Shown: positions 1,352-33,713 of the stretch, piece after piece | How positions within the stretch are numbered: the stretch's first letter is position 1 | How the letters are laid out: the number at the start of each line of letters is the position of its first letter | Source of the DNA: Candidatus Uhrbacteria bacterium | GTDB lineage: Bacteria > Patescibacteriota > Patescibacteriia > UBA9934 > UBA10169 | Direction: 5' to 3' | NCBI GenBank assembly: GCA_016187485.1 | Contig: JACPJO010000004.1 | Location: 56,306 to 120,305 of the forward strand | Length of the DNA: 64,000 nt | Notes under the pieces: generated by a model | Told to the model about the DNA's origin: nothing | What the model saw: the letters and a program-made list of their open reading frames with translations, nothing else | Database searches by the model: none | Translations under genes and position numbers: made by a program

Positions 1352-4300
1352 TTATTGCGGACAGTACTCCAAACGGAGGTCGGAAAGATTCACTGTACCC
1401 GACCCGTTGAAGTTGATGTGGAAAGGAATCTGGAAAGCGCCACTTGCGGGACATTCAAATCCGGGCGGGAACGGGAGAAGGACATCATCGCCTTCGCTTG
1501 CGACACCCCCCGCAAAGCCTGTCGTAGTTTCGTAGTTCAAACTGAGACCCAGAATATTTGCGGTGATGGTGTCTACCACTGCCTGGAAACCATCGGCGTC
1601 TGGAGCGTTATAGGCATATTCCACGCCATCGGCGGGAGGCGCACACTCCGGCGTGCCGTCGCTATTGTTAAGTTCATAGAAGTCCACGCCGCATACATCA
1701 CTCGAAAAATGATTATTGACGGCAATTTCGTCGTCGTTTGAAGTAAAGGCGACCGTATAGATAACCGTATTTTCCAGGGTGTCAAGCGTGTCAGACGCGG
1801 CAGCGGCAGCGAGAAGATCGTCCGATTCCCCATCGGAAACAAGAATCACAATACGCACGTCCGTATCTGGCCGATCGGTAGTGAGAAGTTCGTATGCGCG
1901 GCTAAGCCCGTACGCCGTATGCGTACCCAACCCCGTGCCCGGATTTGCTAGTTGGGAAAGGTTAAGTACAAGTTCACTCTTGCTTGCCGTGAACGAGGCA
2001 TTGGGTAGAGGATTCTCTGCAAGCACATCGGTAGCTGGATTTACTTCATTGAAGATGACAATGCCGCTTGCAAGATTGCCGTTGGGGAACGCGTCATAGA
2101 GTTCGTCTGCCGCATCTACGAGCGCTTCTTTCACAATATCAAGACGGGTTGATTCGTCTGCTTCTGGCGGTGTCCCATCAATCTCGTAGGACATGGAAGT
2201 CGAATAATCAATAAGAAAGATGAGATCTATGTTGGGTGGTTCGACATCATCAAAGCTCACCGAGGCGTACAGCGCCGAACCCACAGTACAGGCCGGGAAG
2301 TAGAGAGTGGCATTATCGGGAGCGCCGGCGGTGGCAGGGTCTTCTGACAAGTAGCTCCTCAAATCCACCGAGGTCGTTCGATTGACGGCCGTCTCGCTTT
2401 GCGCCAGCACAGCTCCTTGTTCGAGTGTGAACGGACATGCAAGCGAGCAGGAAGCATTGCAATCTTGAAGCACGCAGCTTCCAAACGTGTCAGGATTAAA
2501 GATTGGGTCTCCGCATGCCTTGTTATAGTCAAAAGTTTCCGGAGGGGGTTGGGCGCAAGGAAATCCGTTGTACACATATTCCCCATCAACGGCCGTCGCA
2601 GACCCGCCATTACAGGTACCCACAAGCGCCTCGCACGTGTAGTCGAAGGGGCAATCCGCATCCGTCCCACAGACTTCGCCGCGCACTCGTTCGGTGGGGT
2701 TGATTGCTCCCTTGAAGCAGTAAGACGGCACGCTTGCTCCATCGCATACCTCTCCGCCGTTGATAACGCCGTCGCCGCAGTAACCACCCGTGACCGTCTG
2801 GTACGTACATGTGGCAGAGCAATAGTTACAGGTGTCACTGTAGGCGGGATTGCAGGGCACCCCGTTTTGTCCGCCGAGGTCGCATGACTCAACGCCAACG
2901 TTGCGCACGCCGTCGCCGCAGACATTTTGCGTGCAGTTATTCCGACACGCATCCTGTTCGTCCGTATCTCCATCATCGCATTCCTCGATCCCCTCCGGAA
3001 TGCCGTTGCCGCATGATCCCACAGGTGCACAGGCCTGCCAGCCGCCCGGGATCCCCGTCGTTGTAGGCCACCGGCACGCATTGGTATAGGGCGGCAGTCC
3101 AAGTCCGTTACACACACGTGTGCGCGTTTGCGGAAGACCAAGCGTATCAGACGCCGTACTTGCAGGGCAGACTCCCGCCCAGGAAAGTGCGGGGTCGCCG
3201 CAGAGAGAGCCGTCGGCACACTCTGCATTTGTCGTACACGGATCCCCATTGACACAGAGTTTCCCGTTCCACTGCTCGTTTGTGCCATCACACTCTTCCG
3301 CGGCACCGTTTACGGTACCGTCCCCGCACGAAGGAGCAGTCCCGGAACAATCCGCTGCGCATCCATATGCAGGATCTGTCGAGTACAGACCGTTGAGATA
3401 ACTTGCCGACGCCGTGCGGCATTGCGGAGTGGGCGCCAGCAAGTTAAAGGACGCGGCGCTGCCGCAATCACAGGCTTCAGCTCCCCCGATAAGTCCATCC
3501 CCGCAAAAGACCGCACTCGTCCACGTGCAGTTGGTCGCACAGAACCCATATTGACCGTTGAGCGGCCCATCATCACACGTCTCCGAACCTTGAATCACGC
3601 CATCCCCGCAGTAGTTAGGAATACAGGCGGCAGAGGTAGAAGCAGTCTGGAAGGCTTGGCATCCCAGGCCCGACGCGTCCGACGGCCCCACGCACGGCAC
3701 GGCGCGCGTTCCCGATGTGGCCACACAGGAGCCGTTGCTTCCGCAATCACTGGCGGTAGTACAAGGCAGGCCATTAAACGAGAGGTTCACGGCGTTTGCA
3801 CACACATTCGTGGAGCAAGAAACAGATGTTGTCTCTCCTACTTCGCAGATTTCTCCCGATCCAATCAACCCGTCTCCGCAGACATTCGTTGCGGTGAAGG
3901 TCGCTCCATTACAGGTGCGCGCATTTTGGAATCCGCCAAGTACAGGCGTGCTCGCAAACGGAGAGGGAAGATTTGCGTTGCCGACATAATATGTCCCGAG
4001 ATTAGGGAGGGGGGAATCCACATCCACGGGCGAGGCCCACGCGAGCGTCGTCTCGGCAGGAGGAGCCACGCCAAATTCCAAATCGGTCGAAAGCCAGAAC
4101 TCTTCCCCGCCGATACTTCGATAGGTGTACACGTGCGAATCTGCCGGACATATCGCCTGCGCTGCCAGAGCGTTGTAACACGTCTCTGCGTCGTAGCCAT
4201 CCGGACAGCTCACAAATGTGTTGAGCGGATCTGTCGGGACCGCGCGGCCAAGCGCGTTGGCCAATTGCGCCTGCCAGCTTGGCCAGGCAGAAAGGGAGAA

Positions 4301-7300
4301 TGAGGGGATATACGTCCCCGATCCAAGCGTCGGCACCGACGCCACGCATTCCTCGGCGCCTGAACAATCGCTGTCTTCAAAACAGAGTTGATCTTTAGTG
4401 ACACTGCAGTGCCGGTGCGTCTCGCCGTATGATGTAAGGGCCTCGCCAATAGTGCGTACGTCCGTAAGACGCTTGAGATCGCGACGGAGCTTGTCCTTGT
4501 CGGCATCGCAAAGCGCCGGCGAACCTCCCGTTGCCACCGCCGCGCACTCTGCATCCGTTGAGCACGCAACAAGCTCCCCATTCACTTCGATCGGGTCCAT
4601 GTCCCCGCTTGGGAGAGGCGTTGCGCAAACCCGGCCGTTTGTGACGGTCAAAAGCCCTGTCGTCAAGTCACGTGCACCGGCAAATTCCCATGCCCCAAGC
4701 ATAGCTTGATAGATTTGCCTGGTTTCCGCTGACGCCCCTTCGTTGTACGCAATCGCATACATATTGGGATAGAGCGCCGCGCCGGTGTTAGGTGCGGAAA
4801 CGTAGACCGTTCGGCCGTCACGCACACCCTCGAACCCGTCCACCGATTCCGCAGCAGGAGAGCCGACAAATCCTTGACCGGCAAACCACTCGGCGGGAGA
4901 GAGATAGTTGCTGTTGGAGAGCACGCGCACACCGATCGCGTCGTGTATATCCGGATCGTCCACGGCAAAAAGGAACTCCTTAAAAATCCCCGGTGACGCA
5001 ATGTTCTGCGTTTTTTGGACAACCGAGAGAGCCGGTAAGTCGTCACTCGTGCCGCGCTCCCCTGCATCACGGCAATAAAATGCGGAGAAATTCGTGTAGG
5101 GCGCAGTAAGCGTAATGCCCGGCGCTGGGTCTCCCGCATACCAGGCAGAATCTACAAACGGGAAATGTCCCACAGCCGGCCACGGGTTTTCACAAAGGAA
5201 CACGCGCTCCTCTACCGTGCCGCCCACGATTCGCCCAACGGTAGTGGGTGAGAGAACCGTATCTTCCATGATACGCAGTTGCGCCATGACATTCTCAACC
5301 CCATTGATCGCGGGGTTTGCCGTGGAAGCAGTTGCTGTTGTGTTGGCGCTGGTTGAAGCACCGGGAGTCACAACGACAATATTGGGGTCGGCGACACTCG
5401 AATTCCACCCCCATGTGGTAGAGACGGAAGTTCCGCTCCATGCCCACGCATACACTCCCGGCACACTCACGATAGGTTGCGCCAACGGCCCTATAAGTGT
5501 CATCGCCTCCGCCGCAAGTGGATGAGCCGTGTTCGCCTGTGTAAACAGGCCGGGGCTCGCGGAGAGGTCTTCCACCTGCACAAAATCTACGTCGCAAATA
5601 GTATTCCCCGTAGCAAAAATACGGGACCACGATGCCTCAAAGTTGGCAAAGACCGAGGAGTTTCCCACGAGCCCAACGCCCCATCGACTCAATACCCCAT
5701 CAGGATTCGCATCCGTATAGTTCGCATCCGCTTCTACCAAAATGCGGTAGAGCGTCTGTGGTTCAAGGATTTGGTTGTAGAGCACCGACACGCGTGTGAT
5801 GAACTCATCAGGATTCGTCTCGACATCTTCGATGGAGAGATTGGAGGCGACAATGCAGCTCACACTTCCCGCCCACGCGCGTGGCGCCACCACGCGCAAA
5901 ATATTCTGCCACAGACGGGCATACCACGGACGGTCAGAAAAATCCTGCACGATGACGGGCGTCGTATTCGTGGGGCAATCAGAGGCCGTCGTGTAGCGTA
6001 CGTCGGCCGAGTCGTAAGCGCCATTGCCGTTCGTGTCCTCCCCAAAAGCCGTAAGCACAATATGCTTCGTCCCGTTATCTTCCAAAATGCTCTCTTCACC
6101 CATTTGTTGCGTAAAGGCCACACGCACAAGCGCGTTTCGACACACGCCGGCACTCGTGGTGGCAAGCGGAACCGTGGTGCTTTCCTGTACCGCCGGACGA
6201 TCAAAACAGCAGTCACTCACCCCACAGCCAAGCAGGGCCGGCTCGCCGCATGTCGCATCGGTTGTGCAGGAGCACGAAAGACCGATCTCGGCCGTGCCAA
6301 ACGCTGAAGTCTCTGTTGCATCGTCCGAACCCGTTGCGCGAAGCGTCGTACGGACTTCCCCGTCCACGACCGCTTGGGTGGCAACGGCCTCGATTTCAAG
6401 CGTCTGGAGGGGATCGTACGGCCCCACCCCATCATCCGCGCTTGAGGAAATTTCACATTCCTCTCCAAGTTCCGGCAGACCGCCGTTGCCACAGAAGGAT
6501 GGCACCGGATAGAAAACCGACGAGCCTTCGTTCTGGCATTGTGCGGAGCACCCGTCACCACTTGTCGTATTTCCATCATCGCACTCCTCGCCGGCTCCTG
6601 TCGTCACGTTGTACTCTCTCCCGTTGGAACCACAGACACCATTCAAAATTCCCGTGGGGGTTGTGCGCGACCAGACACCCGGACCGAGCGGTTCAGCTAA
6701 ACAATTCGCGCTACACCCGTCCCCACTCGTGATACCTCCGTCGTCACAATCTTCCCCTTCTTCGACGTCACCGTTTCCACAGTGCACGCCAATATCGGCG
6801 CTTGGAGTGGAACCTTCGCGCAAACACTGCGCCGAACACCCATCGCCGCTTATCGTATTGCTGTCTTCACACTCCTCCCCGCCGGAACGGCCGTCCGGTG
6901 TTACTGTGTCGAATTGTGAAATCGTTCCGTCATTACATGTAAGTCCCGCCGCCGTCGAACCTTCGTTAAGACATGTTGCGGAACATCCGTTGCCGTCCAG
7001 GTTGCCGTTGTCGTCACATTCTTCGCGCCCTTCCCGGATACCATTGCCACAACACAACAGATCGGTTGCGGGGTTTGCACATGCGGTCACCCCGACGGTT
7101 TGACACGTGGGAGAACACCCAATGGGGTCAAGCGCGACATCACAATCTTCGTAGAAAGGATTGACGATGCCATCTCCGCAGACCGCCGCATACGAAATCG
7201 TCCCCGTACGCAAACACTGTGCACTGCACGAGAGAGCACGATCGGTGTCAGTGTCAAGAGTGGCCGTGAGCGTGCCGTCGGGAAGGTATGTCGCTACCGA

Positions 7301-10300
7301 GATCTGCGTATTCGTGGCAGAGTTCGTCACTTGATTCACCAGCCAATCCCATGCGTAAGCAAGCGGATTCAATACTTGGCCGGCCACGGCACAGCTGTCC
7401 GGTCGCCCCGTCACTGACGCGGAGAAACTTGCGCGGTCCCCCACGGCTTCAAGAATCACCTCAAGGGGGGAGAGAGCAACGTTCCCAATCCCGCAGGGGG
7501 CCGCATTATCCCGCGTGCGGAAAACCCACGAATAATAATTCCCGTAGTTGAGCGGTATAACCGGTGTGCCGTCCGGATTCGTAACCCCCCAGAGGGGAAT
7601 TCCCGGCACGGTAGGACTTTGCGGCTCCGATGTAATCCCCCCCCAGATCATCACACGATAATACATCGAGGGAGAAAGATCCCCGGCAAGTGTAAGTGCA
7701 ACGCCGTCTTCGACGTCCAATGGATCGTTTACAAAAGAGAGCGCTGTGGGGACAGGAGAGGTCGGATTGAAGGTTGCACAGAACTCATCCTCACAGGCAA
7801 AAACGCGCACATTTGGTTCAAGCACGTTTACCGCATTAACGTGACTCCCCGTAAGCCCCGTCGTTCCTGTTGCTTGCATGGCCGTGTTAAAAACGGCACC
7901 CACTTCTGCGTTCACACAGGCTGTCGTGCACTGTGGGTACGCGAGAGATACGGCGGGGTCGGTGAAATTCACGATCAATTCTTCCGTGTCAGAGATGCTG
8001 TAGCCAATGGGCGTGGCCGTGACAAGTGCCGGCTGTCCCGCATTGGTTTCCTCTTCAGGCACCACAAAGATAGGCTGGAGATTTTCAAAGGCCTGCGCGG
8101 CATTCCCCAAAAACAGGAGCGCATCGTTGATGTCCCCTTCAAGAGGACCGTACTGCGGATCTGCCGTCACGGGATCTGCGGCCTCCTCTGCAGCATCAAG
8201 CGCCGAAGAGAGCGTATCACCGGCAAGCAGCACAGGATTGAGCAGCGAGAAGACCGTGACGGTCTCTGCTGCGAGAGCCGTGTTCGTGCTTGTGAGCGTC
8301 GCAGCTGTTGGCCCTACCAGAGCATGCGCTTCAGGGAGGATCGTTTGCAGCGCCAGGAGAGCATCGGCAAGATCTGCAAGGTTGGTCGGAACCTCATCAA
8401 GAAGAGTTGTTGCCGGCGTGGCCGATTCCGGATCCCCAAGTGTTACCGTGTAGGGCGGATCCACATCAAAGTGGATGTTCTTTCCCTGCCGGTCGAGTTC
8501 CCACGCAAAGGCGTAATCATCAGGGTTGATAAGCACACACGCCCCCGTTGCAGGCAGAGCAACATACGGAATCGTCTCGTCGCTCGTCGCCGTATAATCT
8601 GGCGGACTTACGAGCACCTCTTCTACTTCGCAGGGAGTGGTGCTGGAGCGCGTCTTGAATCGATATGCATACGCCTGTGCCAGAGGAACACCACGGTTGT
8701 TTTTAATACCTGTGGTCGCCGTCGCGCGATACCAGGTATCGGGAAGCAGAGCCGTCGCAGGCGAGAAGATCAGGGAGAGATTCGTCGAGAGCAGAAAGTC
8801 TCCGGCAAGATGTCCTGTGGCAACCGTCTCGCAAGGATCCACTCCCGTCCCCGTACACCGATCTACGTAGAATGAGCCGTTGGTAAACGTAGAGATGTCC
8901 ATGCCGCTCGCGGGAAGGCCGGGAGTGAAGGAAACAGAGACCACCGCATTTGTACAGACGGCATCCCCATCGCTCCACAGTGTTGAGGGCGTGGGGGAAA
9001 TAAATGAGGTATCACACTGCGTACGGATTGTCGGATAGTTCGGGATGGGGCCGGTCGAGAAATGATACACGTACTGGGCGTTCACACTTGGCTCCCCGCA
9101 GGCGGCGGGCGTTGCCGCGCAACTGCCGTTCGAGCAACAAATTTGCGATGCCGTACACAACGAGGGCGTCTCTTGGCAATTCCCTACCGCAAAGAGAAGC
9201 TCATTTGATGGTGCGCCAAGAACCGTCACAGAAACCGGACCTGAAATGGCGCCCGTCGGTACAGGAGCGCTGACGTTCTCCGAAGAAGTGAAGCCAACCG
9301 GGCTTGCGGCTACCCCATCGTGGAAGGTGACACTCACTTCCGACGCGCTTGCGCCAAGATTGCTTCCGTAAATATTCACCGCTGTCCCCACAGGCCCCGC
9401 CACAGGCGCAAGCGCGCAAACGCCGGGTGTTGCAGGCGCCGAGACAACCGTGAAATCCTCCGCGTTACTTTGCGGACTCGTAGGGTAATCCGCACGGCGC
9501 ACAAAAATAGATTTGGGATTGGATTCCTCCGACGTGGTCATACTGGCTGGCACTTGCGCCACAATCGCCGAGTCCGTCCACCATGCATTCTGGCACGCAG
9601 CGGGAAAGTCCGGTTCAAACACCACATCGCCAAGCAAAGGGTCCTGAAAGACAACCACCCCTTCGGTAGATCCAAATCGTTGGCCTAAAATAGTCACGTA
9701 TTGCCCCACGCCACCTTCGGTCGGATGCGCAACACATTGTCCGGTTCCACACTGCGTATCGGACACACAAAGCTGCCCCGCATGTACGATATCGTTTTCA
9801 CACAAGGACCGGCCGGATGTCACTTCGCTGATGAACGGCGCACTGGAGGCATCTTCCGGTGAGAGAACACTGAAGTCAATCGTGTTAGACCCCTCATCAT
9901 TCACGAACACTTGGAGATCGTAGTCGCCCGGAGTACTCGGCGGAACAAGCAAGCTGATAAGCGCATCAAGCCACGTATCCACAGCGGGAAAGAATGACGC
10001 GCGATATACCGACGGACCGCTCAAGTAAAACGCCCCGACCGTCGGATCCTCCCCAAAATTATTTCCCACCACCGAGATGCGCGTAGCGGGCAGGCCGTTG
10101 CCCGGCGTTACCGCACAGAGCCCAGGACGGCGCACGTCATTCACATCAAAGTCTTGGATAAGCGGGCCGAAATCGTCATCCGTTCGGTCGGTAATTCCTG
10201 GCGTCGTGGCCGTCTCTGCTTTTACCACGCCGATCGCCCCATCTGCTGCCTCGGCAGGTACCGCCACAACTACCTGCGTGTTGTTCCAGCTCGGCGCCGG

Positions 10301-11728
10301 ACACGCAATGGGATCCACTTTAATGTCATCCGCCTCGGTATCCGGAGAACCGTAGAAGTACACGATGTTCGCTTGTGCACCAAAACCTGTTCCGTGAATC
10401 GTGACGAAATTATCCGGCGCGCCATTGCCAAGCGAAACCGATTGAATCCGCGGACCCGTGACGCAAACGCCGTTTACACAAAGCCCCGACGTGCAATCGC
10501 TGTTTTGGACACACACCGACGCATCGCAAGAAAGACAGTCCTCCCCGCCGCAATCTATCGCCGCCTCATCTTCATTTTGAATGGTGTCGGTACAGTGCGG
10601 GGCAAGAGCCGTCACGGGCACGCTGGAGGATGTCGTTTGATTACCGGCACAATCTGCCGCCACCGCGCGAATGGCATGGGTACTCGCTGGGGTAAGGTTC
10701 CCGGGCGTCCACGAACCCGATGCAAGACAGCTCACGGGACCGTCCCCCGCACAGGATGCCGGACCCGCAGAATCCACGGCTGTATTATCTACCGTAAAGG
10801 TGGTCACGCCCACACCGGAATCATCTGTAAGACTTGCCTGCAGAGACAGGGGGTAGCCCTCGTAGACAGGCGCGCCAGACGACGGATCAGTAATAGTCAC
10901 GGTTGGCCCCGTTGTATCTATGGCATCTGTCGTGGTGAAACCAAAGGAGCACGGCGCGGCAAGCGAACAGGCAATCTCTACGCCGTCCGCGCTTCGTAGA
11001 CCCTCAGAAACACGTACTTCGTAAGAAGTCGCCGGCTCAAAGCAGCGCTCAGAAGAACTGGGACAAGAAGCATCCGGCAGAACAGTAAGCACACGGCCAG
11101 AAGCGGAGAGATCCGTGGAAATAGCGTCCCCTCCGACAGGCGTCACGGTTATGTAAGGGGCAAGGGCGCTCGCGGACGTGGGAAGGTTTCGATTGAAGAG
11201 AATCTGAATCTCCGCATTTCTCGGCACCGAGGGAACCGAGGCCAGACACCCCCACGACGTAACGACAAATTGTGTGCGGTAGTCGGCAGGACATGTGGCG
11301 CAGGTGCTCAAATTTGTATCCTCCGGCCCCCCAATGACGTTGTTCTGCGACGTGGCGCCCACGAGCGATGAAATGACGAATTGCGCAATAGCAAAGGACG
11401 CCAAAATGATGGCAAGCCCGATGACCGCATTAATAATCATGCCGCGCGCTTTGCGCACCTTTTCCTCTTCTCCCTTCGAGAGCATCCACAAAAACCCGGC
11501 GTACAAGATCATGCCAATCAAGACCACGCCAGAGAACGTAATCGCTGCGCGCACAAGCCGCGCAATGATAAGACGGATGTCCGATGTCCCTCCAAACCCC
11601 GCTTGTGTGGCAAAATCTCCGAGGCCCTCGGTAATCGGCGACGAGGCGGCAAAAACAATATCGGGAAGCCACACGAGTGCGCCGAGAGAGAGGAGGAAGA
11701 CCAGTTGGGAGATGATGCGGCGTTTCAT
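1352..11728 (-). CDS. Giant (3458 aa) secreted, membrane-anchored surface protein. N-terminal signal peptide plus two-helix pilin-like hairpin, IPT/TIG-like beta-sandwich repeats, two arrays of Cys-rich CGDG/CGNG-x-EECDDGN-x-DGCS repeats (Myxococcus cysteine-rich-repeat type), C-terminal von Willebrand factor A domain with a MIDAS motif
   Basis: Single uninterrupted ORF with balanced amino-acid composition. N-terminus MKRRIISQLVFLLSLGALVWLPDIVFAASS, then TM helices GVVLIGMILYAGFLWM and AVIGLAIILASFAIAQFVI. Motifs VTIHGTGFG, VTILGQRFG and VNIYGSNLG are IPT-like. Repeats such as CGNGIREGREECDDNGNLDGNGCSATC occur about 6 and about 10 times. The VWA motif is DLIFLIDYSTSMS...GLGTHTAYGL...VILVSDGES. 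Confidence 0.85.
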   Translation of the reverse strand: MKRRIISQLVFLLSLGALVWLPDIVFAASSPITEGLGDFATQAGFGGTSDIRLIIARLVRAAITFSGVVLIGMILYAGFLWMLSKGEEEKVRKARGMIINAVIGLAIILASFAIAQFVISSLVGATSQNNVIGGPEDTNLSTCATCPADYRTQFVVTSWGCLASVPSVPRNAEIQILFNRNLPTSASALAPYITVTPVGGDAISTDLSASGRVLTVLPDASCPSSSERCFEPATSYEVRVSEGLRSADGVEIACSLAAPCSFGFTTTDAIDTTGPTVTITDPSSGAPVYEGYPLSLQASLTDDSGVGVTTFTVDNTAVDSAGPASCAGDGPVSCLASGSWTPGNLTPASTHAIRAVAADCAGNQTTSSSVPVTALAPHCTDTIQNEDEAAIDCGGEDCLSCDASVCVQNSDCTSGLCVNGVCVTGPRIQSVSLGNGAPDNFVTIHGTGFGAQANIVYFYGSPDTEADDIKVDPIACPAPSWNNTQVVVAVPAEAADGAIGVVKAETATTPGITDRTDDDFGPLIQDFDVNDVRRPGLCAVTPGNGLPATRISVVGNNFGEDPTVGAFYLSGPSVYRASFFPAVDTWLDALISLLVPPSTPGDYDLQVFVNDEGSNTIDFSVLSPEDASSAPFISEVTSGRSLCENDIVHAGQLCVSDTQCGTGQCVAHPTEGGVGQYVTILGQRFGSTEGVVVFQDPLLGDVVFEPDFPAACQNAWWTDSAIVAQVPASMTTSEESNPKSIFVRRADYPTSPQSNAEDFTVVSAPATPGVCALAPVAGPVGTAVNIYGSNLGASASEVSVTFHDGVAASPVGFTSSENVSAPVPTGAISGPVSVTVLGAPSNELLFAVGNCQETPSLCTASQICCSNGSCAATPAACGEPSVNAQYVYHFSTGPIPNYPTIRTQCDTSFISPTPSTLWSDGDAVCTNAVVSVSFTPGLPASGMDISTFTNGSFYVDRCTGTGVDPCETVATGHLAGDFLLSTNLSLIFSPATALLPDTWYRATATTGIKNNRGVPLAQAYAYRFKTRSSTTPCEVEEVLVSPPDYTATSDETIPYVALPATGACVLINPDDYAFAWELDRQGKNIHFDVDPPYTVTLGDPESATPATTLLDEVPTNLADLADALLALQTILPEAHALVGPTAATLTSTNTALAAETVTVFSLLNPVLLAGDTLSSALDAAEEAADPVTADPQYGPLEGDINDALLFLGNAAQAFENLQPIFVVPEEETNAGQPALVTATPIGYSISDTEELIVNFTDPAVSLAYPQCTTACVNAEVGAVFNTAMQATGTTGLTGSHVNAVNVLEPNVRVFACEDEFCATFNPTSPVPTALSFVNDPLDVEDGVALTLAGDLSPSMYYRVMIWGGITSEPQSPTVPGIPLWGVTNPDGTPVIPLNYGNYYSWVFRTRDNAAPCGIGNVALSPLEVILEAVGDRASFSASVTGRPDSCAVAGQVLNPLAYAWDWLVNQVTNSATNTQISVATYLPDGTLTATLDTDTDRALSCSAQCLRTGTISYAAVCGDGIVNPFYEDCDVALDPIGCSPTCQTVGVTACANPATDLLCCGNGIREGREECDDNGNLDGNGCSATCLNEGSTAAGLTCNDGTISQFDTVTPDGRSGGEECEDSNTISGDGCSAQCLREGSTPSADIGVHCGNGDVEEGEDCDDGGITSGDGCSANCLAEPLGPGVWSRTTPTGILNGVCGSNGREYNVTTGAGEECDDGNTTSGDGCSAQCQNEGSSVFYPVPSFCGNGGLPELGEECEISSSADDGVGPYDPLQTLEIEAVATQAVVDGEVRTTLRATGSDDATETSAFGTAEIGLSCSCTTDATCGEPALLGCGVSDCCFDRPAVQESTTVPLATTSAGVCRNALVRVAFTQQMGEESILEDNGTKHIVLTAFGEDTNGNGAYDSADVRYTTASDCPTNTTPVIVQDFSDRPWYARLWQNILRVVAPRAWAGSVSCIVASNLSIEDVETNPDEFITRVSVLYNQILEPQTLYRILVEADANYTDANPDGVLSRWGVGLVGNSSVFANFEASWSRIFATGNTICDVDFVQVEDLSASPGLFTQANTAHPLAAEAMTLIGPLAQPIVSVPGVYAWAWSGTSVSTTWGWNSSVADPNIVVVTPGASTSANTTATASTANPAINGVENVMAQLRIMEDTVLSPTTVGRIVGGTVEERVFLCENPWPAVGHFPFVDSAWYAGDPAPGITLTAPYTNFSAFYCRDAGERGTSDDLPALSVVQKTQNIASPGIFKEFLFAVDDPDIHDAIGVRVLSNSNYLSPAEWFAGQGFVGSPAAESVDGFEGVRDGRTVYVSAPNTGAALYPNMYAIAYNEGASAETRQIYQAMLGAWEFAGARDLTTGLLTVTNGRVCATPLPSGDMDPIEVNGELVACSTDAECAAVATGGSPALCDADKDKLRRDLKRLTDVRTIGEALTSYGETHRHCSVTKDQLCFEDSDCSGAEECVASVPTLGSGTYIPSFSLSAWPSWQAQLANALGRAVPTDPLNTFVSCPDGYDAETCYNALAAQAICPADSHVYTYRSIGGEEFWLSTDLEFGVAPPAETTLAWASPVDVDSPLPNLGTYYVGNANLPSPFASTPVLGGFQNARTCNGATFTATNVCGDGLIGSGEICEVGETTSVSCSTNVCANAVNLSFNGLPCTTASDCGSNGSCVATSGTRAVPCVGPSDASGLGCQAFQTASTSAACIPNYCGDGVIQGSETCDDGPLNGQYGFCATNCTWTSAVFCGDGLIGGAEACDCGSAASFNLLAPTPQCRTASASYLNGLYSTDPAYGCAADCSGTAPSCGDGTVNGAAEECDGTNEQWNGKLCVNGDPCTTNAECADGSLCGDPALSWAGVCPASTASDTLGLPQTRTRVCNGLGLPPYTNACRWPTTTGIPGGWQACAPVGSCGNGIPEGIEECDDGDTDEQDACRNNCTQNVCGDGVRNVGVESCDLGGQNGVPCNPAYSDTCNYCSATCTYQTVTGGYCGDGVINGGEVCDGASVPSYCFKGAINPTERVRGEVCGTDADCPFDYTCEALVGTCNGGSATAVDGEYVYNGFPCAQPPPETFDYNKACGDPIFNPDTFGSCVLQDCNASCSLACPFTLEQGAVLAQSETAVNRTTSVDLRSYLSEDPATAGAPDNATLYFPACTVGSALYASVSFDDVEPPNIDLIFLIDYSTSMSYEIDGTPPEADESTRLDIVKEALVDAADELYDAFPNGNLASGIVIFNEVNPATDVLAENPLPNASFTASKSELVLNLSQLANPGTGLGTHTAYGLSRAYELLTTDRPDTDVRIVILVSDGESDDLLAAAAASDTLDTLENTVIYTVAFTSNDDEIAVNNHFSSDVCGVDFYELNNSDGTPECAPPADGVEYAYNAPDADGFQAVVDTITANILGLSLNYETTTGFAGGVASEGDDVLLPFPPGFECPASGAFQIPFHINFNGSGTVNLSDLRLEYCPQ

Positions 11729-11737
11729 GCAAGGTTT

Positions 11738-13648
11738 CTAGGGAGCGGGAGGAGAGAAAATGGGCGGTAGGGGACACGAGCCGGAGGCAAGCGCATTTCC
11801 GTCGCAACAACTTGGCTGTGAGGCATCCACGGCGCAATCCCCCGGCGGGCCATAGGCGGGGTAATAACAAATTTGATAGGCCGACTCCACTTCGTTATTG
11901 ATAAAAGGGTAGTACAGCTGTGTGATGGTATCCTCCAGGTAGTCCAGGAACGACCCGTGCTCCAAAACCGCAACGGTCCCCACGACTTCTGGCTCCGTCG
12001 CAGGCGGGACTGCGGGCACCGTCACTCCCTCCGCAAGAGGCCGATACCAAATTTCATGGAACGGGCGCGGAGCAATGCCCATATTCGTGTTCGTTAGTGA
12101 CCCTACACGCATCGGCACATCAAACGTCACGCGCACGGGGGCAGAAATATCCACGTCGGGCTGATTTAACGTGGGAAGCAAGGACGCGATGGCGGGGCGA
12201 TCGAGGTTTACATCATCCGTCGTTGAAAAAAATGACCAAAAGTTGTCTATGGCAAGATCGTCGTCCGGCTCTGGCGTCAGTGCCGCGTTGGCTGGCGGCC
12301 CATTGGCAATAAGATTTTGGTCGTCGCCGTTTTTCCCACCTCCATCCAGAGAATTCCCTGCCACGTCCACCACGCCATCGTAGCCCACAGCCGTAAAGAG
12401 CGCTTGAGGCGGTTCGGCGCCGAGCGTGGCGGCACGCACCAGAAGCGTAAAGTCATCATTCCCTGGAAGACAGAAGATTGCTCCTCCGCAAGCGTTCTCG
12501 CCGCATTGGTCAAAACTCGTAAATTCGGTCGTGCGGTACCCATTTGTGATGCGCCATGTGCCTTCTACCGGTACCGCGTCACTATCGTCGTCACGCACTT
12601 GGAGGTTTGAGAAAAATCTTGCCGGCGTGGCGGTGGGACGATGCACTCCCGCCGTGGCGGTAGGGTCTACCGCCTCATTGAAGTTCACTTGCACCACGAT
12701 ATTGCGGTCTACAGTCCGATCGGCAACAGGAATAACGCTTTGCACATAGGGCGGGGTAATATCCACCACCGTGGAGACCGTAAATGACCAGGCATAGCCC
12801 GTGGTATTGGGCGGAGGGAAGGCCGGAAACGTTGTCGTAAGGTCAGGGCCAAGTTTCAAAATATCGGCATCCAAAAGGACAGAGTAGTTTTGCTCTTCTT
12901 CTGCGCTTCCAATAAACTCCACCGGGTCAAAGACAAAGATTTTTTTGTCTGCTGTATACGTGACGTCTACGGCATCTTGCACAAGAGCGCCCGCAACCCC
13001 ATCAGCCGTACGGTAAATTTTCACATTGCCCGCATTCACTTTACCCCGCGGGACTTCGGCCACCGGATCAATCGTGCCCGGAGCAATGAGGGAGTCAACA
13101 AACATCGATTCTTTAAATGTCACGATAATTTTTGTGTTGCGCGGGATCTCTACCGCTCCGCGAGCGGGATAATGATCTTCGATAATCCCCTGCCCCAGCG
13201 CTCCCGAAAGCGGTTCAATAAAGCCGGCAATGTTGGTAGAGGTAGATGGCTGGCGAAGCCCGAGCGAGCGCAGAAGCGCACTTAAGATAAACGAAGCGAT
13301 TCCGTAAGACGCAAGCACGATAGCCAAACCGATGACGGCGGTGCGAATGATGCCGCGCGCGGTTTGGATTTTCTTGGGATCGCCACCTGCCAGCATGTAG
13401 CGAATACCGGCGTACACAATGAGACAGACAAAGACGATGCCCAAAAACCCAATGACCGCACGAACAATCTTTGCTGCAATCACGCGAACGTCTTGTGTGG
13501 GCAGACCCTGAGCGCCAATGTCAGAAAGATTTGCGCCAAGCCCTGCTTCTGCGCCGAATGCTATCGACGAGAGAAAAAACAAACCCGCCGTCACGCTAAG
13601 AGTGATGGCTAAAAAAAGAGCGCTGCGTTTTGCACCCACAAACCGCAT
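11738..13648 (-). CDS. 636-aa secreted, membrane-anchored protein. Its N-terminal signal peptide plus two-TM hairpin module is paralogous to that of the giant protein
   Basis: N-terminus MRFVGAKRSALFLAITLSVTAGLFFLSSIAFGA...VRVIAAKIVRAVIGFLGIVFVCLIVYAGIRYMLAGGDPKKIQTARGIIRTAVIGLAIVLASYGIASFI aligns residue-by-residue with the giant protein's N-terminus. Its stop lies 10 nt upstream of the giant gene's start. Confidence 0.75.
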   Translation of the reverse strand: MRFVGAKRSALFLAITLSVTAGLFFLSSIAFGAEAGLGANLSDIGAQGLPTQDVRVIAAKIVRAVIGFLGIVFVCLIVYAGIRYMLAGGDPKKIQTARGIIRTAVIGLAIVLASYGIASFILSALLRSLGLRQPSTSTNIAGFIEPLSGALGQGIIEDHYPARGAVEIPRNTKIIVTFKESMFVDSLIAPGTIDPVAEVPRGKVNAGNVKIYRTADGVAGALVQDAVDVTYTADKKIFVFDPVEFIGSAEEEQNYSVLLDADILKLGPDLTTTFPAFPPPNTTGYAWSFTVSTVVDITPPYVQSVIPVADRTVDRNIVVQVNFNEAVDPTATAGVHRPTATPARFFSNLQVRDDDSDAVPVEGTWRITNGYRTTEFTSFDQCGENACGGAIFCLPGNDDFTLLVRAATLGAEPPQALFTAVGYDGVVDVAGNSLDGGGKNGDDQNLIANGPPANAALTPEPDDDLAIDNFWSFFSTTDDVNLDRPAIASLLPTLNQPDVDISAPVRVTFDVPMRVGSLTNTNMGIAPRPFHEIWYRPLAEGVTVPAVPPATEPEVVGTVAVLEHGSFLDYLEDTITQLYYPFINNEVESAYQICYYPAYGPPGDCAVDASQPSCCDGNALASGSCPLPPIFSPPAP

Positions 13649-15883: not shown

Positions 15884-16495
15884 TTAAAGGGTATCGTACA
15901 CGGGCGTTTGAAATCCTCCAAGACGCGAAAACGGGAAGCCGCGGAACCAGACGCGGCCGACCATTAAGTCTCGCCCGACGGGACCGAAACTGCGCGAGTC
16001 AAGACTGTAATCCCGGTTGTCGCCCAGAAGATAATACTCCTGGGCTCCGAGTTCTACGCGCTTCTTCCCCACGGTCTCGGCGCCATCAAGATACGGCTCC
16101 TTAAGCGGAAGTCCCTCGGGGTATGCGTCGTTATAAATCTTTACGCGTCCCTCATCTACCTCGACTGTTTCGCCAGGAAGCCCGATAACGCGCTTGATAA
16201 AATACTGGCTTGGGTCCCGGGGATATTGGAAAACAATAATCTCGCCACGCTCGGGCTCACGAAACCGGTAGGAGATTTCGTCTATCACCAGATACTCATT
16301 GTCGTAAAAATTCGGTTCCATGCTGGCGCCGCGCACAATGAACGGCTGGATCAGAAAAGCGCGGATGGGGATGATGATCGCTGCGGAGATCGCCAAAATC
16401 TGCACGAGTTCTACAATAAAAACAATCACGGAGCCAAAGACCCCGAATCGTTCCGACCAATGCGCCCTCTCCGGCACCGAAGGCATGTCTTCCAT
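15884..16495 (-). CDS. lepB: Signal peptidase I (S26 family)
   Basis: GASMEPNFYDNEYLVIDEISYRF...IKRVIGLPGETV...LGDNRDYSLDSRSFGPV. The track ORF begins at a TTG inside a palindrome at about 16534. The first ATG (MEDMPSVPE) is at about 16495. Confidence 0.85.
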   Translation of the reverse strand: MEDMPSVPERAHWSERFGVFGSVIVFIVELVQILAISAAIIIPIRAFLIQPFIVRGASMEPNFYDNEYLVIDEISYRFREPERGEIIVFQYPRDPSQYFIKRVIGLPGETVEVDEGRVKIYNDAYPEGLPLKEPYLDGAETVGKKRVELGAQEYYLLGDNRDYSLDSRSFGPVGRDLMVGRVWFRGFPFSRLGGFQTPVYDTL

Positions 16496-16534
16496 AGGTG
16501 CGAGCACTTTATCAAGGAAATTTCCAAAAATCAA

Positions 16535-22202: not shown

Positions 22203-23825
22203 CTACTTGATGTCTTCGCCGTAGCAGCTCTGGGCTCTGCCTTCGGCGTTCTTGGTGCAGAGGGTGGGAATGCCCCCGCAGTAGTACCGGTCGTAGAGGG
22301 TGCGCTTCTCGCGACCCTTCACGTTGACGGCACCGGGCACGCACTCGCCCTTGAGGACATCGCCCGTCAGCATCGCCTCGAGCGCGCGCTGGGCGTACCC
22401 AGCTTTCTTCTCGGCGGCGAGAGCGCGCTCGTCAGCCTTGCCGAACTTGGTCTCGGCCAAGTGCGCCGAAGCGGCAGACTCCGCCGCAGCGGCTTCAGCA
22501 GCCGAGCGCAGTTCCTCCCGACGGGACGTTTCCTTCGAGAAGACGGTGATGAGACTGGCCACGTGGTCGTTCATCCACTCCGACGACTCGCCGATGCTCG
22601 CGATCTGCTCGCTCTGGGTTGCGTCCACGCGGCCCTGGTGCATCCAGAACGCAACGATTCCAGTAGCAAGGACGGTAAAGAGGCCGATCACGATCGTCCG
22701 CACACGCTTGAGCGCGTGGAGAGCCAGAGAGAGGCGTTGACCGAGATCTTCCACCTGCTTCACGGACGGGAGCGCGATGACCGGCATCGGCCGCTCCGTC
22801 CCGGGGGTCGTCTGCTGCCTGGACGGCGGCGGCTCGGGGTAGGCCAGCCTGCGCAGTGCCACCATCCCCTGCTCCATGGTCATGAGCCGATCCCACATAC
22901 CGTCGAAGACCGCACGGTTGTACGCCGGCTCTCCGCTTCCGTCGCAGATGACCGCGACGATCTGCGTCCACATGCCCGTGAGGTCCGGACGACTGATCGT
23001 GAAGGGGAACTTCGTCGCCAGGATGGCCCAGACATTCTGGGCGTTCATCGCCTTGGGAGCATCCCCCATCCCGAGGACCTCGGCCCACAGGTAGTCGCGG
23101 CGCAAGTTGGGCAGACGCCACAGATCTTCGGGACTGGGCGGCGCCTTCGCTGCCTGATCTTCACGCTTGAGCTGCTTCCAGATCGTGTCAAAGCTCGCCC
23201 GTCCGAGGGGAGGAAGATCACCCTGGCAGAGCATCAACTCCACCATCAGGTTGAAGTCAAGACGCATCTGCGGAAGAGCGACGATGTTGGGGAAGTGCCG
23301 CTGAAGCAGCCGCCAGGCGTTGTCCTCGTTGATGTCCCGAGGGTCCATCCCCTCGATCTCGAAGACCCGGCAGAGATACGCCCACCGGACGTCCAGGCCC
23401 CTCCAGTTGGCCTCAGGGTTCGGATCCGGCGCCACGGGCGGGCCGTTGCCCCCTCCGTTCGCTTCAAGTTCCGCCGCCACGCGGTGCATCTCGTCGGGGT
23501 CGAAGCCCTCCGTTTCCTCATCGTTCCCGATGCCATCGTGGATGGCTGCGGCCAGCACGTCCCGCCGACGGTCACCCTGGAACAATGGCCCCTCCGGAAT
23601 GCCGGGAATGGATCCCCCCTCTTCGTCTGCTGTCTGCACCGGCGGGGCACCACCAACCACCGGCACGATGCCGGGGCGCGGAAGATCCGTCGAGCCGGGG
23701 GCAGCCTCTCCCTCATCCCCAGGCGGTCGGGGAAGAAATCCCTCGTCTTCCACGATCTGTGCGGGACCCTTCTGGCCCTTGTTTCCATCGTTGCTTGAAA
23801 TGAGCATTCTGTTGTCTCCCTCCAT
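22203..23825 (-). CDS. Hypothetical 540-aa protein with compositionally foreign (very high GC3) codon usage. Disordered Pro/Gly/Glu N-terminus, two tandem aromatic-rich repeats of about 85 aa, one TM helix, a coiled-coil Ala/Glu segment and a Cys-rich C-terminus
   Basis: Balanced amino-acid composition on the minus frame. The overlapping plus-strand ORFs are Arg-rich artefacts. Repeats are ...WRLLQRHFPNIVALPQMRLDFNLMVELMLCQGDLPPLGRASFDTIWKQL and ...VWAILATKFPFTISRPDLTGMWTQIVAVICDGSGEPAYNRAVFDGMWDRL. TM helix IVIGLFTVLATGIVAFWMH. Confidence 0.6.
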   Translation of the reverse strand: MEGDNRMLISSNDGNKGQKGPAQIVEDEGFLPRPPGDEGEAAPGSTDLPRPGIVPVVGGAPPVQTADEEGGSIPGIPEGPLFQGDRRRDVLAAAIHDGIGNDEETEGFDPDEMHRVAAELEANGGGNGPPVAPDPNPEANWRGLDVRWAYLCRVFEIEGMDPRDINEDNAWRLLQRHFPNIVALPQMRLDFNLMVELMLCQGDLPPLGRASFDTIWKQLKREDQAAKAPPSPEDLWRLPNLRRDYLWAEVLGMGDAPKAMNAQNVWAILATKFPFTISRPDLTGMWTQIVAVICDGSGEPAYNRAVFDGMWDRLMTMEQGMVALRRLAYPEPPPSRQQTTPGTERPMPVIALPSVKQVEDLGQRLSLALHALKRVRTIVIGLFTVLATGIVAFWMHQGRVDATQSEQIASIGESSEWMNDHVASLITVFSKETSRREELRSAAEAAAAESAASAHLAETKFGKADERALAAEKKAGYAQRALEAMLTGDVLKGECVPGAVNVKGREKRTLYDRYYCGGIPTLCTKNAEGRAQSCYGEDIK

Positions 23826-33550: not shown

Positions 33551-33627
<77 letters not shown>

Positions 33628-33636
33628 ATTGTTCGG

Positions 33637-33713
33637 GGCTGGGTAGCTCAGTTGGTTAGAGCGAGGGACTCATAAGCCCTAGGTCGCCGGTTCGATTCCG
33701 GCCCCAGCTACCA
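33637..33713 (+). tRNA. tRNA with CAU anticodon: elongator Met or Ile2 (lysidine)
   Basis: GGCTGGGTAGCTCAGTTGGTTAGAGCGAGGGACTCATAAGCCCTAGGTCGCCGGTTCGATTCCGGCCCCAGCTACCA. Elongator-type acceptor stem. Its identity cannot be fixed from sequence alone. Confidence 0.8.

Follow-up and report, generated by a model that had tools for sequence, protein, structure and literature searches.

Two adjacent genes of an uncultured Candidatus Uhrbacteria bacterium (Patescibacteriota) encode proteins in which the two-helix hairpin of VirB2-like pilins, preceded by a signal peptide, is fused to a large ectodomain. The genes lie in the stretch of DNA analyzed here (hereafter the window), which comprises 64,000 nucleotides of chromosomal DNA on contig JACPJO010000004.1 (assembly GCA_016187485.1, positions 56,306 to 120,305); both are on the reverse strand, as are all features described below unless stated otherwise. 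The first open reading frame (ORF), at 11738-13648, encodes a protein of 636 residues, and the second, at 1352-11728, a protein of 3458 residues that we call the giant. The two are 9 nucleotides apart, the giant starting after the stop codon of the 636-residue protein. Their NCBI counterparts are the 633-residue MBI2484844.1 (‘hypothetical protein HYW18_01695’, Candidatus Uhrbacteria) and MBI2484843.1 (‘VWA domain-containing protein’), respectively. We favor, at about an even chance, a model in which the two serve this Patescibacterium as modular VirB2-like pilins and display their ectodomains.

An earlier note, made by reading the DNA alone, had proposed that the first ~125 residues of the two proteins form a common module of signal peptide, helix, short basic loop and second helix, and the comparison of the two proteins bears this out. 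The sole significant BLASTP alignment of the pair joins residues 7-181 of the 636-residue protein to residues 2-182 of the giant (95 bits, E 2e-23), with an ungapped core (residues 53-126 against 50-123) in which 38 of 74 positions are identical. Hydropathy places hydrophobic segments at residues 8-33, 54-89 and 99-129 of the 636-residue protein and at residues 4-30, 53-86 and 94-126 of the giant. The AlphaFold2 model agrees: the N-terminus of the 636-residue protein is predicted to consist of a signal-peptide helix (residues 4-32), a disordered tail of ~20 residues, a helix (54-86), a four-residue turn (87-90) and a second helix (91-128), the predicted local distance difference test score (pLDDT) being ~90 for the hairpin. 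The signal peptide of the 636-residue protein (13544-13648) would extend from residue 1 to ~35 and end in the motif A33-E-A35, of which A33 is kept in at least 90% of 91 orthologues; that of the giant (11648-11728) would extend to residue ~27 (...DIVFA/ASSP), the cleavage sites being putative in both cases. The hairpins themselves occupy 13265-13489 in the 636-residue protein, where the loop reads GGDPKK, and 11354-11578 (residues 51-125) in the giant. Counted with their signal peptides, the modules run from 13256 to 13648 and from 11354 to 11728, whereas the interval first assigned to them, 11356-13648, reaches from the end of the giant’s module to the start of the 636-residue gene. The hairpin loops of the two proteins are basic (GGDPKKIQTARG and KGEEEKVRKARG) and the N-terminal tail ahead of the hairpin is acidic, consistent with a topology in which the N-terminus is out, the loop in and the C-terminus out.

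The claim that everything downstream of the module is unrelated proved a little overstated. The remaining BLASTP segments between the two proteins have E values of at least 0.2. However, the significant alignment extends ~55 residues beyond the hairpin, and both ectodomains open with a Big_5 immunoglobulin (Ig)-like domain, which starts at about residue 156 in the 636-residue protein and at residue 167 in the giant; the stretch immediately past the hairpin is thus related at the family level. At the nucleotide level, the modules are 57% identical overall and 31% identical at third codon positions, and the longest exact run is 11 nucleotides. The similarity between the proteins is therefore old and maintained by selection, and a recent tandem duplication or gene conversion is ruled out as its source. 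No third copy of the module was found among the six-frame ORFs of the window.

Several profiles place the module in a pilin family and set it apart from a generic hairpin, as the earlier note had supposed. The Pfam family PF18895 (T4SS_pilin) matches residues 56-121 of the 636-residue protein and residues 51-118 of the giant; the full proteins score 30.2 and 27.8 bits, both above the gathering score of 26.6, and the isolated modules score 34.3 and 33.7 bits. The NCBIfam family NF045849 (‘Mbov_0395 family pilin-like conjugal transfer protein’) matches the modules at E 2e-7 to 8e-7. The motif YAG..WM..GG...K.AK...NA.IGL of the fused hairpins is also present in free pilins, and the conserved hairpin positions (R..I, G, YAG, WM, GG, K.AK and NA.IGL.I) are identical in the two. 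A link to the classical family PF04956 (TrbC/VirB2) can be made through relatives: two orthologues of the 636-residue protein, P0207 and P0210, match positions 5-97 of the 98 in the profile, scoring 24.8 and 26.7 bits, respectively; for P0002, a free relative, the score is 26.4 bits. All three are below the gathering score of 27.9, with E values of 6.5e-6 to 2.5e-5 over almost the whole profile. Conversely, VirB2 of A. tumefaciens (its sequence confirmed by tblastn at 100% identity) scored 5.9 bits against a hidden Markov model (HMM) built from the 91 fused modules. Of 2000 shuffles that preserved composition or segments, 13-14 scored as high, and a control hairpin, ATP synthase subunit c of E. 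coli, scored -1.5 bits against the same HMM. By these results, the module genuinely belongs to the VirB2-like pilins of Patescibacteria and is distantly related to classical VirB2/TrbC. This pilin identity is founded on sequence profiles, not on fold.

The ectodomain of the 636-residue protein (11741-13213) is joined to the hairpin by a flexible linker (13214-13264, residues 129-145, pLDDT < 50). In the AlphaFold2 model, which was built from the 91-sequence alignment (pLDDT 87.9; predicted template modeling score 0.78), the hairpin and the disordered linker are followed by three β-sandwich domains of the Ig-like, Big_5 type. Foldseek matches this model best to mycobacterial LdtMt2, to SbsC and Sap, which are S-layer proteins, and to titin, in each case to their Ig-like domains. 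The alignment of the 91 orthologues has 35 invariant columns, four of them hairpin glycines and the others in the ectodomain, including five cysteines. As modeled, the ectodomain is a rigid rod of three Ig domains.

The giant begins its ectodomain with an Ig-like stalk (8651-11230), in which Pfam recognizes Big_5 (residues 167-266), Big_7 (275-353), TIG repeats (426-840) and a second Big_5 (924-1026). A central region (4049-8131, residues ~1200-2560) combines DUF4215 Cys-rich repeats (~1550-1760) with a Pfam-free stretch, and further DUF4215 repeats are found near residue 2900. The C-terminal VWA domain (1727-2227, residues 3168-3334; 35.4 bits with Pfam VWA) carries DYSTS, i.e., the DxSxS signature of a metal-ion-dependent adhesion site, which reads as intact in the translation. 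Over the ~900 residues from 1801 to 2700 (window 4829-6328 and 3629-4828) there was no Pfam match, and this part seems to be an uncharacterized module conserved among giants. Residues 1900-2560 used as a query also match separate Patescibacterial proteins of ~1000 residues that carry LamG, FN3 and ‘DUF5057’. In two related loci the giant is split into consecutive ORFs, of 718, 602, 485, 1061, 288 and 344 residues in one (L013:4476-15250) and of 2445, 1024 and 650 residues in the other (L014:2603-15141); these may be frameshifts of long-read assembly or true gene fission.

To survey the module more widely, an exhaustive profile search was made over 1.84 billion cluster representatives. It returned 83,526 representatives at E <= 1e-3 and 28,092 at E <= 1e-10. 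Among the best 150 matches, 23 are free pilins of at most 200 residues, 112 have two or more hairpins per polypeptide, 14 consist of one N-terminal module with a long extension (up to 4,654 residues in total), and one, a single-module protein of 217 residues, is outside these classes. Apart from the fusions, the members of PF18895 are mostly free proteins, of 106-167 residues. At least nine representative long proteins (1878-4654 residues) share the ectodomain of the giant, most of them over its central region, at 24-29% identity. When six of the 14 long proteins were scanned with Pfam, five showed the order Big_5/Big_7/TIG after the hairpin, two of these being shorter proteins. The long pilin-fronted proteins form one family of giants. 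With the ectodomain of the 636-residue protein alone as the query, at least 178 clusters were found at E <= 1e-5, nearly all of 545-690 residues; among the matches listed, PF18895 is present in about nine in ten, and NCBI gives one of them the name ‘pilin’. More than 100 clusters keep the architecture of hairpin and ectodomain at 35-58% identity. Because the exact 636-residue protein is present on 11 contigs from different sequencing runs, because most of the ectodomain clusters listed also have PF18895, and because there are at least nine giants, the fusions are genuine and conserved, and not artefacts of assembly or gene calling. The proposal of a reusable module is likewise upheld: it is found in free pilins, in front of two distinct, conserved ectodomain families, behind N-terminal ectodomains and in tandem in multi-hairpin proteins.

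The multi-hairpin proteins, which we refer to as polypilins, have one signal peptide and from 2 to at least 9 tandem T4SS_pilin hairpins (P0020, P0022, P0023, P0027 and ~110 others), joined by linkers of 15-30 residues; a remote search counted up to 17 such stretches, and P0020 holds 6 hairpins within 552 residues. They may represent oligomers of covalently linked pilins or else precursors that are polyproteins, and no description of them was found in the literature on these pilins. A single-protein scan of the genome contigs gave three loci with arrays of small pilins. At L008:5761-16133 (CAYTOP010000011.1) there is a ten-gene pilin array in which the members of 489, 423 and 233 residues bear a C-terminal hairpin behind an N-terminal ectodomain, so that the hairpin accepts cargo at either end. 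The ectodomain of the 489-residue member has a weak, sub-threshold BACON match, and the array is followed by a protein of 1145 residues with NAGPA and lysozyme-like SLT_3 domains. Among 72,556 plasmids, the only tblastn match was an ‘Mbov_0395 family pilin-like’ gene of the Pontibacillus sp. ALD_SL1 megaplasmid NZ_CP062975.1 (L017:11731-18045), 4 kb upstream of a ‘VirB4-like conjugal transfer ATPase, CD1110 family’, a pairing in line with the recent claim that type IV secretion systems (T4SSs) of Gram-positive bacteria have VirB2-like proteins too (bioRxiv 10.64898/2025.12.18.695078).

We further compared the conservation of the hairpin with that of the other parts of the protein. In the 91 orthologues, mean pairwise identity is highest in the two hairpin helices (51 and 50%), relative to 46, 49 and 32% in the three Ig domains and 23% in both the signal peptide and the linker. 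The hairpins also resemble each other within a genome: for seven syntenic pairs, identity between the hairpin of the ~600-residue protein and that of the giant averages 52.3% (range 42-74%). Both the identity between small-partner and giant-partner hairpins across genomes (45.3%) and that between orthologues of the same type (48%) are below this value, and the observed within-genome mean is attained by 2 of the 5040 possible pairings, the real one included. Such co-variation fits partners that must match each other or a common partner. These comparisons, in which the hairpin proves no less conserved than the folded domains and varies in step between the partners, point to a specific assembly role and not to simple anchoring.

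In the model that we favor, both precursors would be inserted through Sec, and LepB, the signal peptidase I encoded nearby, is the presumed enzyme that removes their signal peptides. The hairpin would then span the membrane twice, the N-terminal tail and the C-terminus facing outward and the basic loop reaching into the cytoplasm, which would place the ectodomain on the cell surface. VirB2-type pilins enter the membrane as hairpins whose charged loop lies on the cytoplasmic side, and from there they are extracted onto a pentamer of VirB6; in all conjugative pili solved, the loop lines the lumen and both pilin termini point outward (bioRxiv 10.64898/2025.12.18.695078). The geometry of such a filament thus leaves room for a C-terminal extension on its outer face, and display of the ectodomains on the cell surface is likely. 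On a platform of the T4SS type (VirB6/VirB4), each hairpin would most likely pack with that of its partner and with free pilins. The ectodomain protein would most probably be a sparse or tip subunit, or part of a short hetero-oligomeric stalk, and would act as an adhesin for contact with host cells. By analogy with conjugative pilins, we infer that the hairpins may polymerize into a pilus or fiber. In Southlakia, the one species tested, both the T4SS and its pilin array are essential (PMC10633639). A broader form of the model, which we regard as doubtful, would make the hairpin a general docking and polymerization unit for cargo of any size, with the ~600-residue protein and the giant co-assembling as the tip or stalk of a T4SS pilus and serving as a host-contact adhesin; the cargo would then range from none (free pilins) through 2 to at least 9 tandem hairpins and N-terminal ectodomains to C-terminal ectodomains of 500 to 4,600 residues.

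The genomic setting of the pair is well defined by seven syntenic loci (the window, L013, L015, L016, L018, L019 and L020). In all seven, the order is S26 signal peptidase, hisS, a small basic ORF (rpsU, i.e., S21, in one locus), yqeY, the ~600-residue pilin protein and the giant. The signal peptidase of the window (15884-16534; Pfam S26) scores 132 bits with TIGR02227 (cutoff 47), the model of ordinary signal peptidase I, and 28.7 bits with the TraF-type model (cutoff 100); a TraF-like pilin maturase is thereby ruled out. In one syntenic locus, a free pilin of 167 residues is inserted between the genes of the ~600-residue protein and the giant. Downstream of the giant are single-pass membrane proteins of 296, 189 and 334 residues whose outer parts have TSP3 repeats. 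The first (460-1350) starts 1 nucleotide past the giant’s stop codon and combines Cys-rich repeats with C-terminal TSP3 calcium-binding repeats; the second is represented by its 5' part (1-247), where the gene leaves the window. TSP3 proteins follow the pair in the loci that reach far enough (the window, L013, L016 and L019), and L013, L016 and the locus of the window then continue with ybeY-dagK-ftsA-ftsZ. Identity between the window proteins and their counterparts at the other syntenic loci is 35-58%. Synteny this stable at such identity is not what one usually sees with surface adhesins, which as a rule vary and move between genomic sites. Between positions 1 and 16600, a promoter scan gave 4 promoter-like sites against a shuffled mean of 7.4, and a terminator scan gave 17 terminator-like sites against 18.6.

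The other genes of the window are likewise housekeeping genes. Besides signal peptidase I, HisRS and YqeY, they encode a Ser/Thr kinase, LytR, Der, Pth, DprA, TopA, RelA, ParAB, ScpAB, two aminoacyl-tRNA synthetases, RecO, SecY, a ribosomal protein operon, EF-Tu, EF-G, a MurA-like protein and ComEC. There are four tRNA genes, among them two tRNA-Met (CAU) genes 9 nucleotides apart (33551-33713, forward strand) that adjoin a divergent tRNA-Leu. The stretch richest in GC (0.625 relative to ~0.55) holds an ORF of 540 residues (22203-23825, reverse strand) for which neither Pfam nor NCBIfam gave a match; an ORF of 445 residues overlaps it on the opposite strand.

A number of observations weigh against the model of displayed T4SS-type pilins. 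Genes for VirB4, VirB6, VirB3 or a coupling protein were absent from the 64-kb window and from the 10 kb to its left, and in six further genomes no T4SS gene was found up to 10 kb from the pair; the VirB4/VirB6-like partner that the earlier note had envisaged thus failed to appear near the pair, which sits among housekeeping and division genes. In Patescibacteria as a whole, VirB4 was detected in 2,417 of 3,035 assemblies and VirB2-like pilins in 1,948, near virB4 in 1,135 (PMC12102498). However, in the part of Table S1 of that study that was tallied, VirB4 is marked ‘Yes’ for 18 Uhrbacteria drafts and ‘No’ for 18, 36 in all, and of the two drafts listed there that hold an orthologue of the 636-residue protein, one is ‘Yes’ and one is ‘No’. 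Because draft genomes are incomplete, a ‘No’ is weak evidence. The size of the giant also bears on the model: a domain of 3,300 residues on every subunit would be incompatible with a dense pilus lattice, and therefore only sparse or terminal incorporation is conceivable. Regarding the pilin identity, the window proteins and their modules had no match to PF04956 at E <= 1, and the suggested relation to TrbC/VirB2 thus stands for the orthologues, at E ~1e-5, and fails for the window modules themselves. The NF045849 scores (28.6, 30.6 and 24.8 bits, E 2e-7 to 1e-5) are under the 40-bit cutoff of that family, so that the module seems to be related to it without being an equivalog. A sequence-profile search of the PDB with the module found no pilin and nothing else, and two fold searches, which returned no pilin, placed the hairpin among thousands of unrelated helical hairpins, with pilins scoring no better. 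Finally, genome-specific amino-acid usage or occasional old gene conversion could contribute to the co-variation of the hairpins, which was measured in seven pairs.

The absence of T4SS genes from these loci is accommodated by a reading that we take to be a real possibility, if short of an even chance, namely that the hairpin was co-opted as a T4SS-independent, perhaps self-associating anchor or envelope scaffold, and that the pair and the TSP3 proteins build a constitutive surface layer or fibrous coat. The core-genome setting (lepB, hisS, ybeY, ftsA and ftsZ), with virB4 adjoining in none of the seven loci, speaks for it, as do the strong conservation of the 636-residue protein’s ectodomain and its likeness to Ig-like domains in the S-layer proteins SbsC and Sap. 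Giant membrane proteins are thought to form the fibrous surface of another bacterium of the candidate phyla radiation (CPR) (PMC8080830), and the tallied part of Table S1 is in keeping with the same reading, with VirB4 in half of the Uhrbacteria drafts and undetected in one that has the orthologue, although incomplete drafts again make the ‘No’ a weak point. Against it, a plain anchor would be expected to evolve like the signal peptide (23%), whereas the hairpin keeps 50-51% identity and the exact motif of free pilins. The co-variation of the partner hairpins and the free pilin of 167 residues between the pair in one locus likewise speak against it.

It is unlikely, in our estimation, that the proteins are precursors whose linker is cut to give an ordinary small pilin and a released surface or secreted protein, with the multi-hairpin proteins being pilin polyproteins. 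A linker that is disordered and poorly conserved would suit such processing, as would the abundance of tandem multi-hairpin proteins with a single signal peptide, and the P-type pilin TrbC of RP4 has a C-terminal propeptide that is trimmed off. However, the linkers of the 91 orthologues share no conserved cleavage motif, the S26 neighbor is a signal peptidase I of the ordinary kind rather than a maturase of the TraF type, and there is no dedicated protease gene in the conserved cassette. A chance likeness of a generic signal peptide and transmembrane hairpin, or an error of assembly or gene calling, is very improbable, for although the fold searches mix the hairpin with unrelated ones and the PDB search was empty, coincidence is already refuted by the BLASTP alignment of the modules, the Pfam scores above the curated threshold and the 28,092 representatives, and artefact by identical proteins on many independent contigs and by the architecture kept in more than 100 diverged clusters.

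Patescibacteria account for much of the diversity of bacteria, and those that have been cultivated live attached to host cells. In them, the module and arrays of VirB2-like pilins are already known and are treated as small pilins (PMC12102498; PMC10633639; review PMC12857230); PrgB-like adhesins have not been detected, and the role of the T4SS is described as unknown (PMC10633639, PMC12102498, PMC11665869). Where giant membrane proteins of CPR bacteria were described earlier, no pilin anchor was mentioned (PMC8080830), and databases label the proteins in question automatically as ‘pilin’, ‘Ig-like domain-containing’ or ‘VWA domain-containing’. In the full-text literature searched, we found no published description of VirB2-like pilins with large ectodomains. 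If the pilin model is correct, the pair would represent the first pilins of the VirB2 family to carry functional modules of their own, and would contradict the general statement that VirB2 homologues are small. It would also be a testable candidate for how Patescibacteria reach and hold their hosts, and may supply the adhesins not yet found. Even without a link to a T4SS, the pair would be a conserved and strongly constrained component of the envelope.

Among known systems, the pair can be compared with pili and surface layers of several kinds. The Pam pilus of CPR bacteria was considered and rejected (bioRxiv 10.64898/2026.03.03.709456): Pam pili are built by donor-strand exchange from Ig-like pilins with PapD-like chaperones and are encoded by the pam operon, and Pam pilins have a signal peptide without the hairpin and come from a different operon; the cassette of the pilin pair has no chaperone-like gene. 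The Ig-domain S-layer proteins SbsC and Sap (Big_5 being ‘SbsA Ig-like’) have an Ig rod like that of the 636-residue ectodomain, but the likeness is that of the generic Ig fold (TM-scores of 0.1-0.2 over the whole model), and they attach by SLH or cell-wall-binding domains, whereas the present pair would attach by the pilin hairpin. The Mbov_0395 family (NF045849) of conjugative elements in Mollicutes and Firmicutes matches the hairpin at the E values given above; its members, however, are small and reside on mobile elements, and the module scores 25-31 bits relative to the cutoff of 40. Classical VirB2/TrbC (PF04956) and PrgF, a VirB2-like protein of Gram-positive bacteria (bioRxiv 10.64898/2025.12.18.695078), have the same topology as the modules. 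To VirB2/TrbC there is a weak, non-random similarity, orthologues reaching E ~1e-5 with PF04956 and VirB2 scoring above 99.3% of its shuffles. According to the PrgF preprint, all characterized mature VirB2 homologues are small, unlike the proteins of the window, and VirB2-like pili now seem to occur in Gram-positive systems as well (bioRxiv 10.64898/2025.12.18.695078).

The closest relatives are the Patescibacterial VirB2-like pilins (PF18895; Quinonero-Coronel et al. 2025, PMC12102498; Wang et al. 2023, PMC10633639), which belong to the same family and phylum and have the same signal peptide, two helices and charged loop. They too are encoded by tandem genes, and in one syntenic locus a pair of the present type flanks a free pilin. 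They are, however, small, stand-alone proteins (~100-170 residues), often encoded beside virB4, whereas the proteins described here have 636 and 3458 residues, with C-terminal ectodomains of 500 and 3,300 residues, and at the loci examined they lie in a housekeeping setting with no T4SS gene within 10 kb. In function, the nearest parallel is offered by modular type IV pilins such as PilB of Streptococcus sanguinis, a minor subunit that bears a vWA domain (PMC8179133). Neither the fold of the pilin nor the machinery is related (type IV pilus as opposed to T4SS): the present pair has no prepilin-peptidase site (G/FTLxE-type) with a single N-terminal helix, and instead has long Sec-type signal peptides with AxA-like ends and a two-helix hairpin. 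The extensions are also far larger here. The logic is nevertheless the same, i.e., a pilin module joined to an adhesion module, and the VWA domain of PilB has its counterpart in that of the giant.

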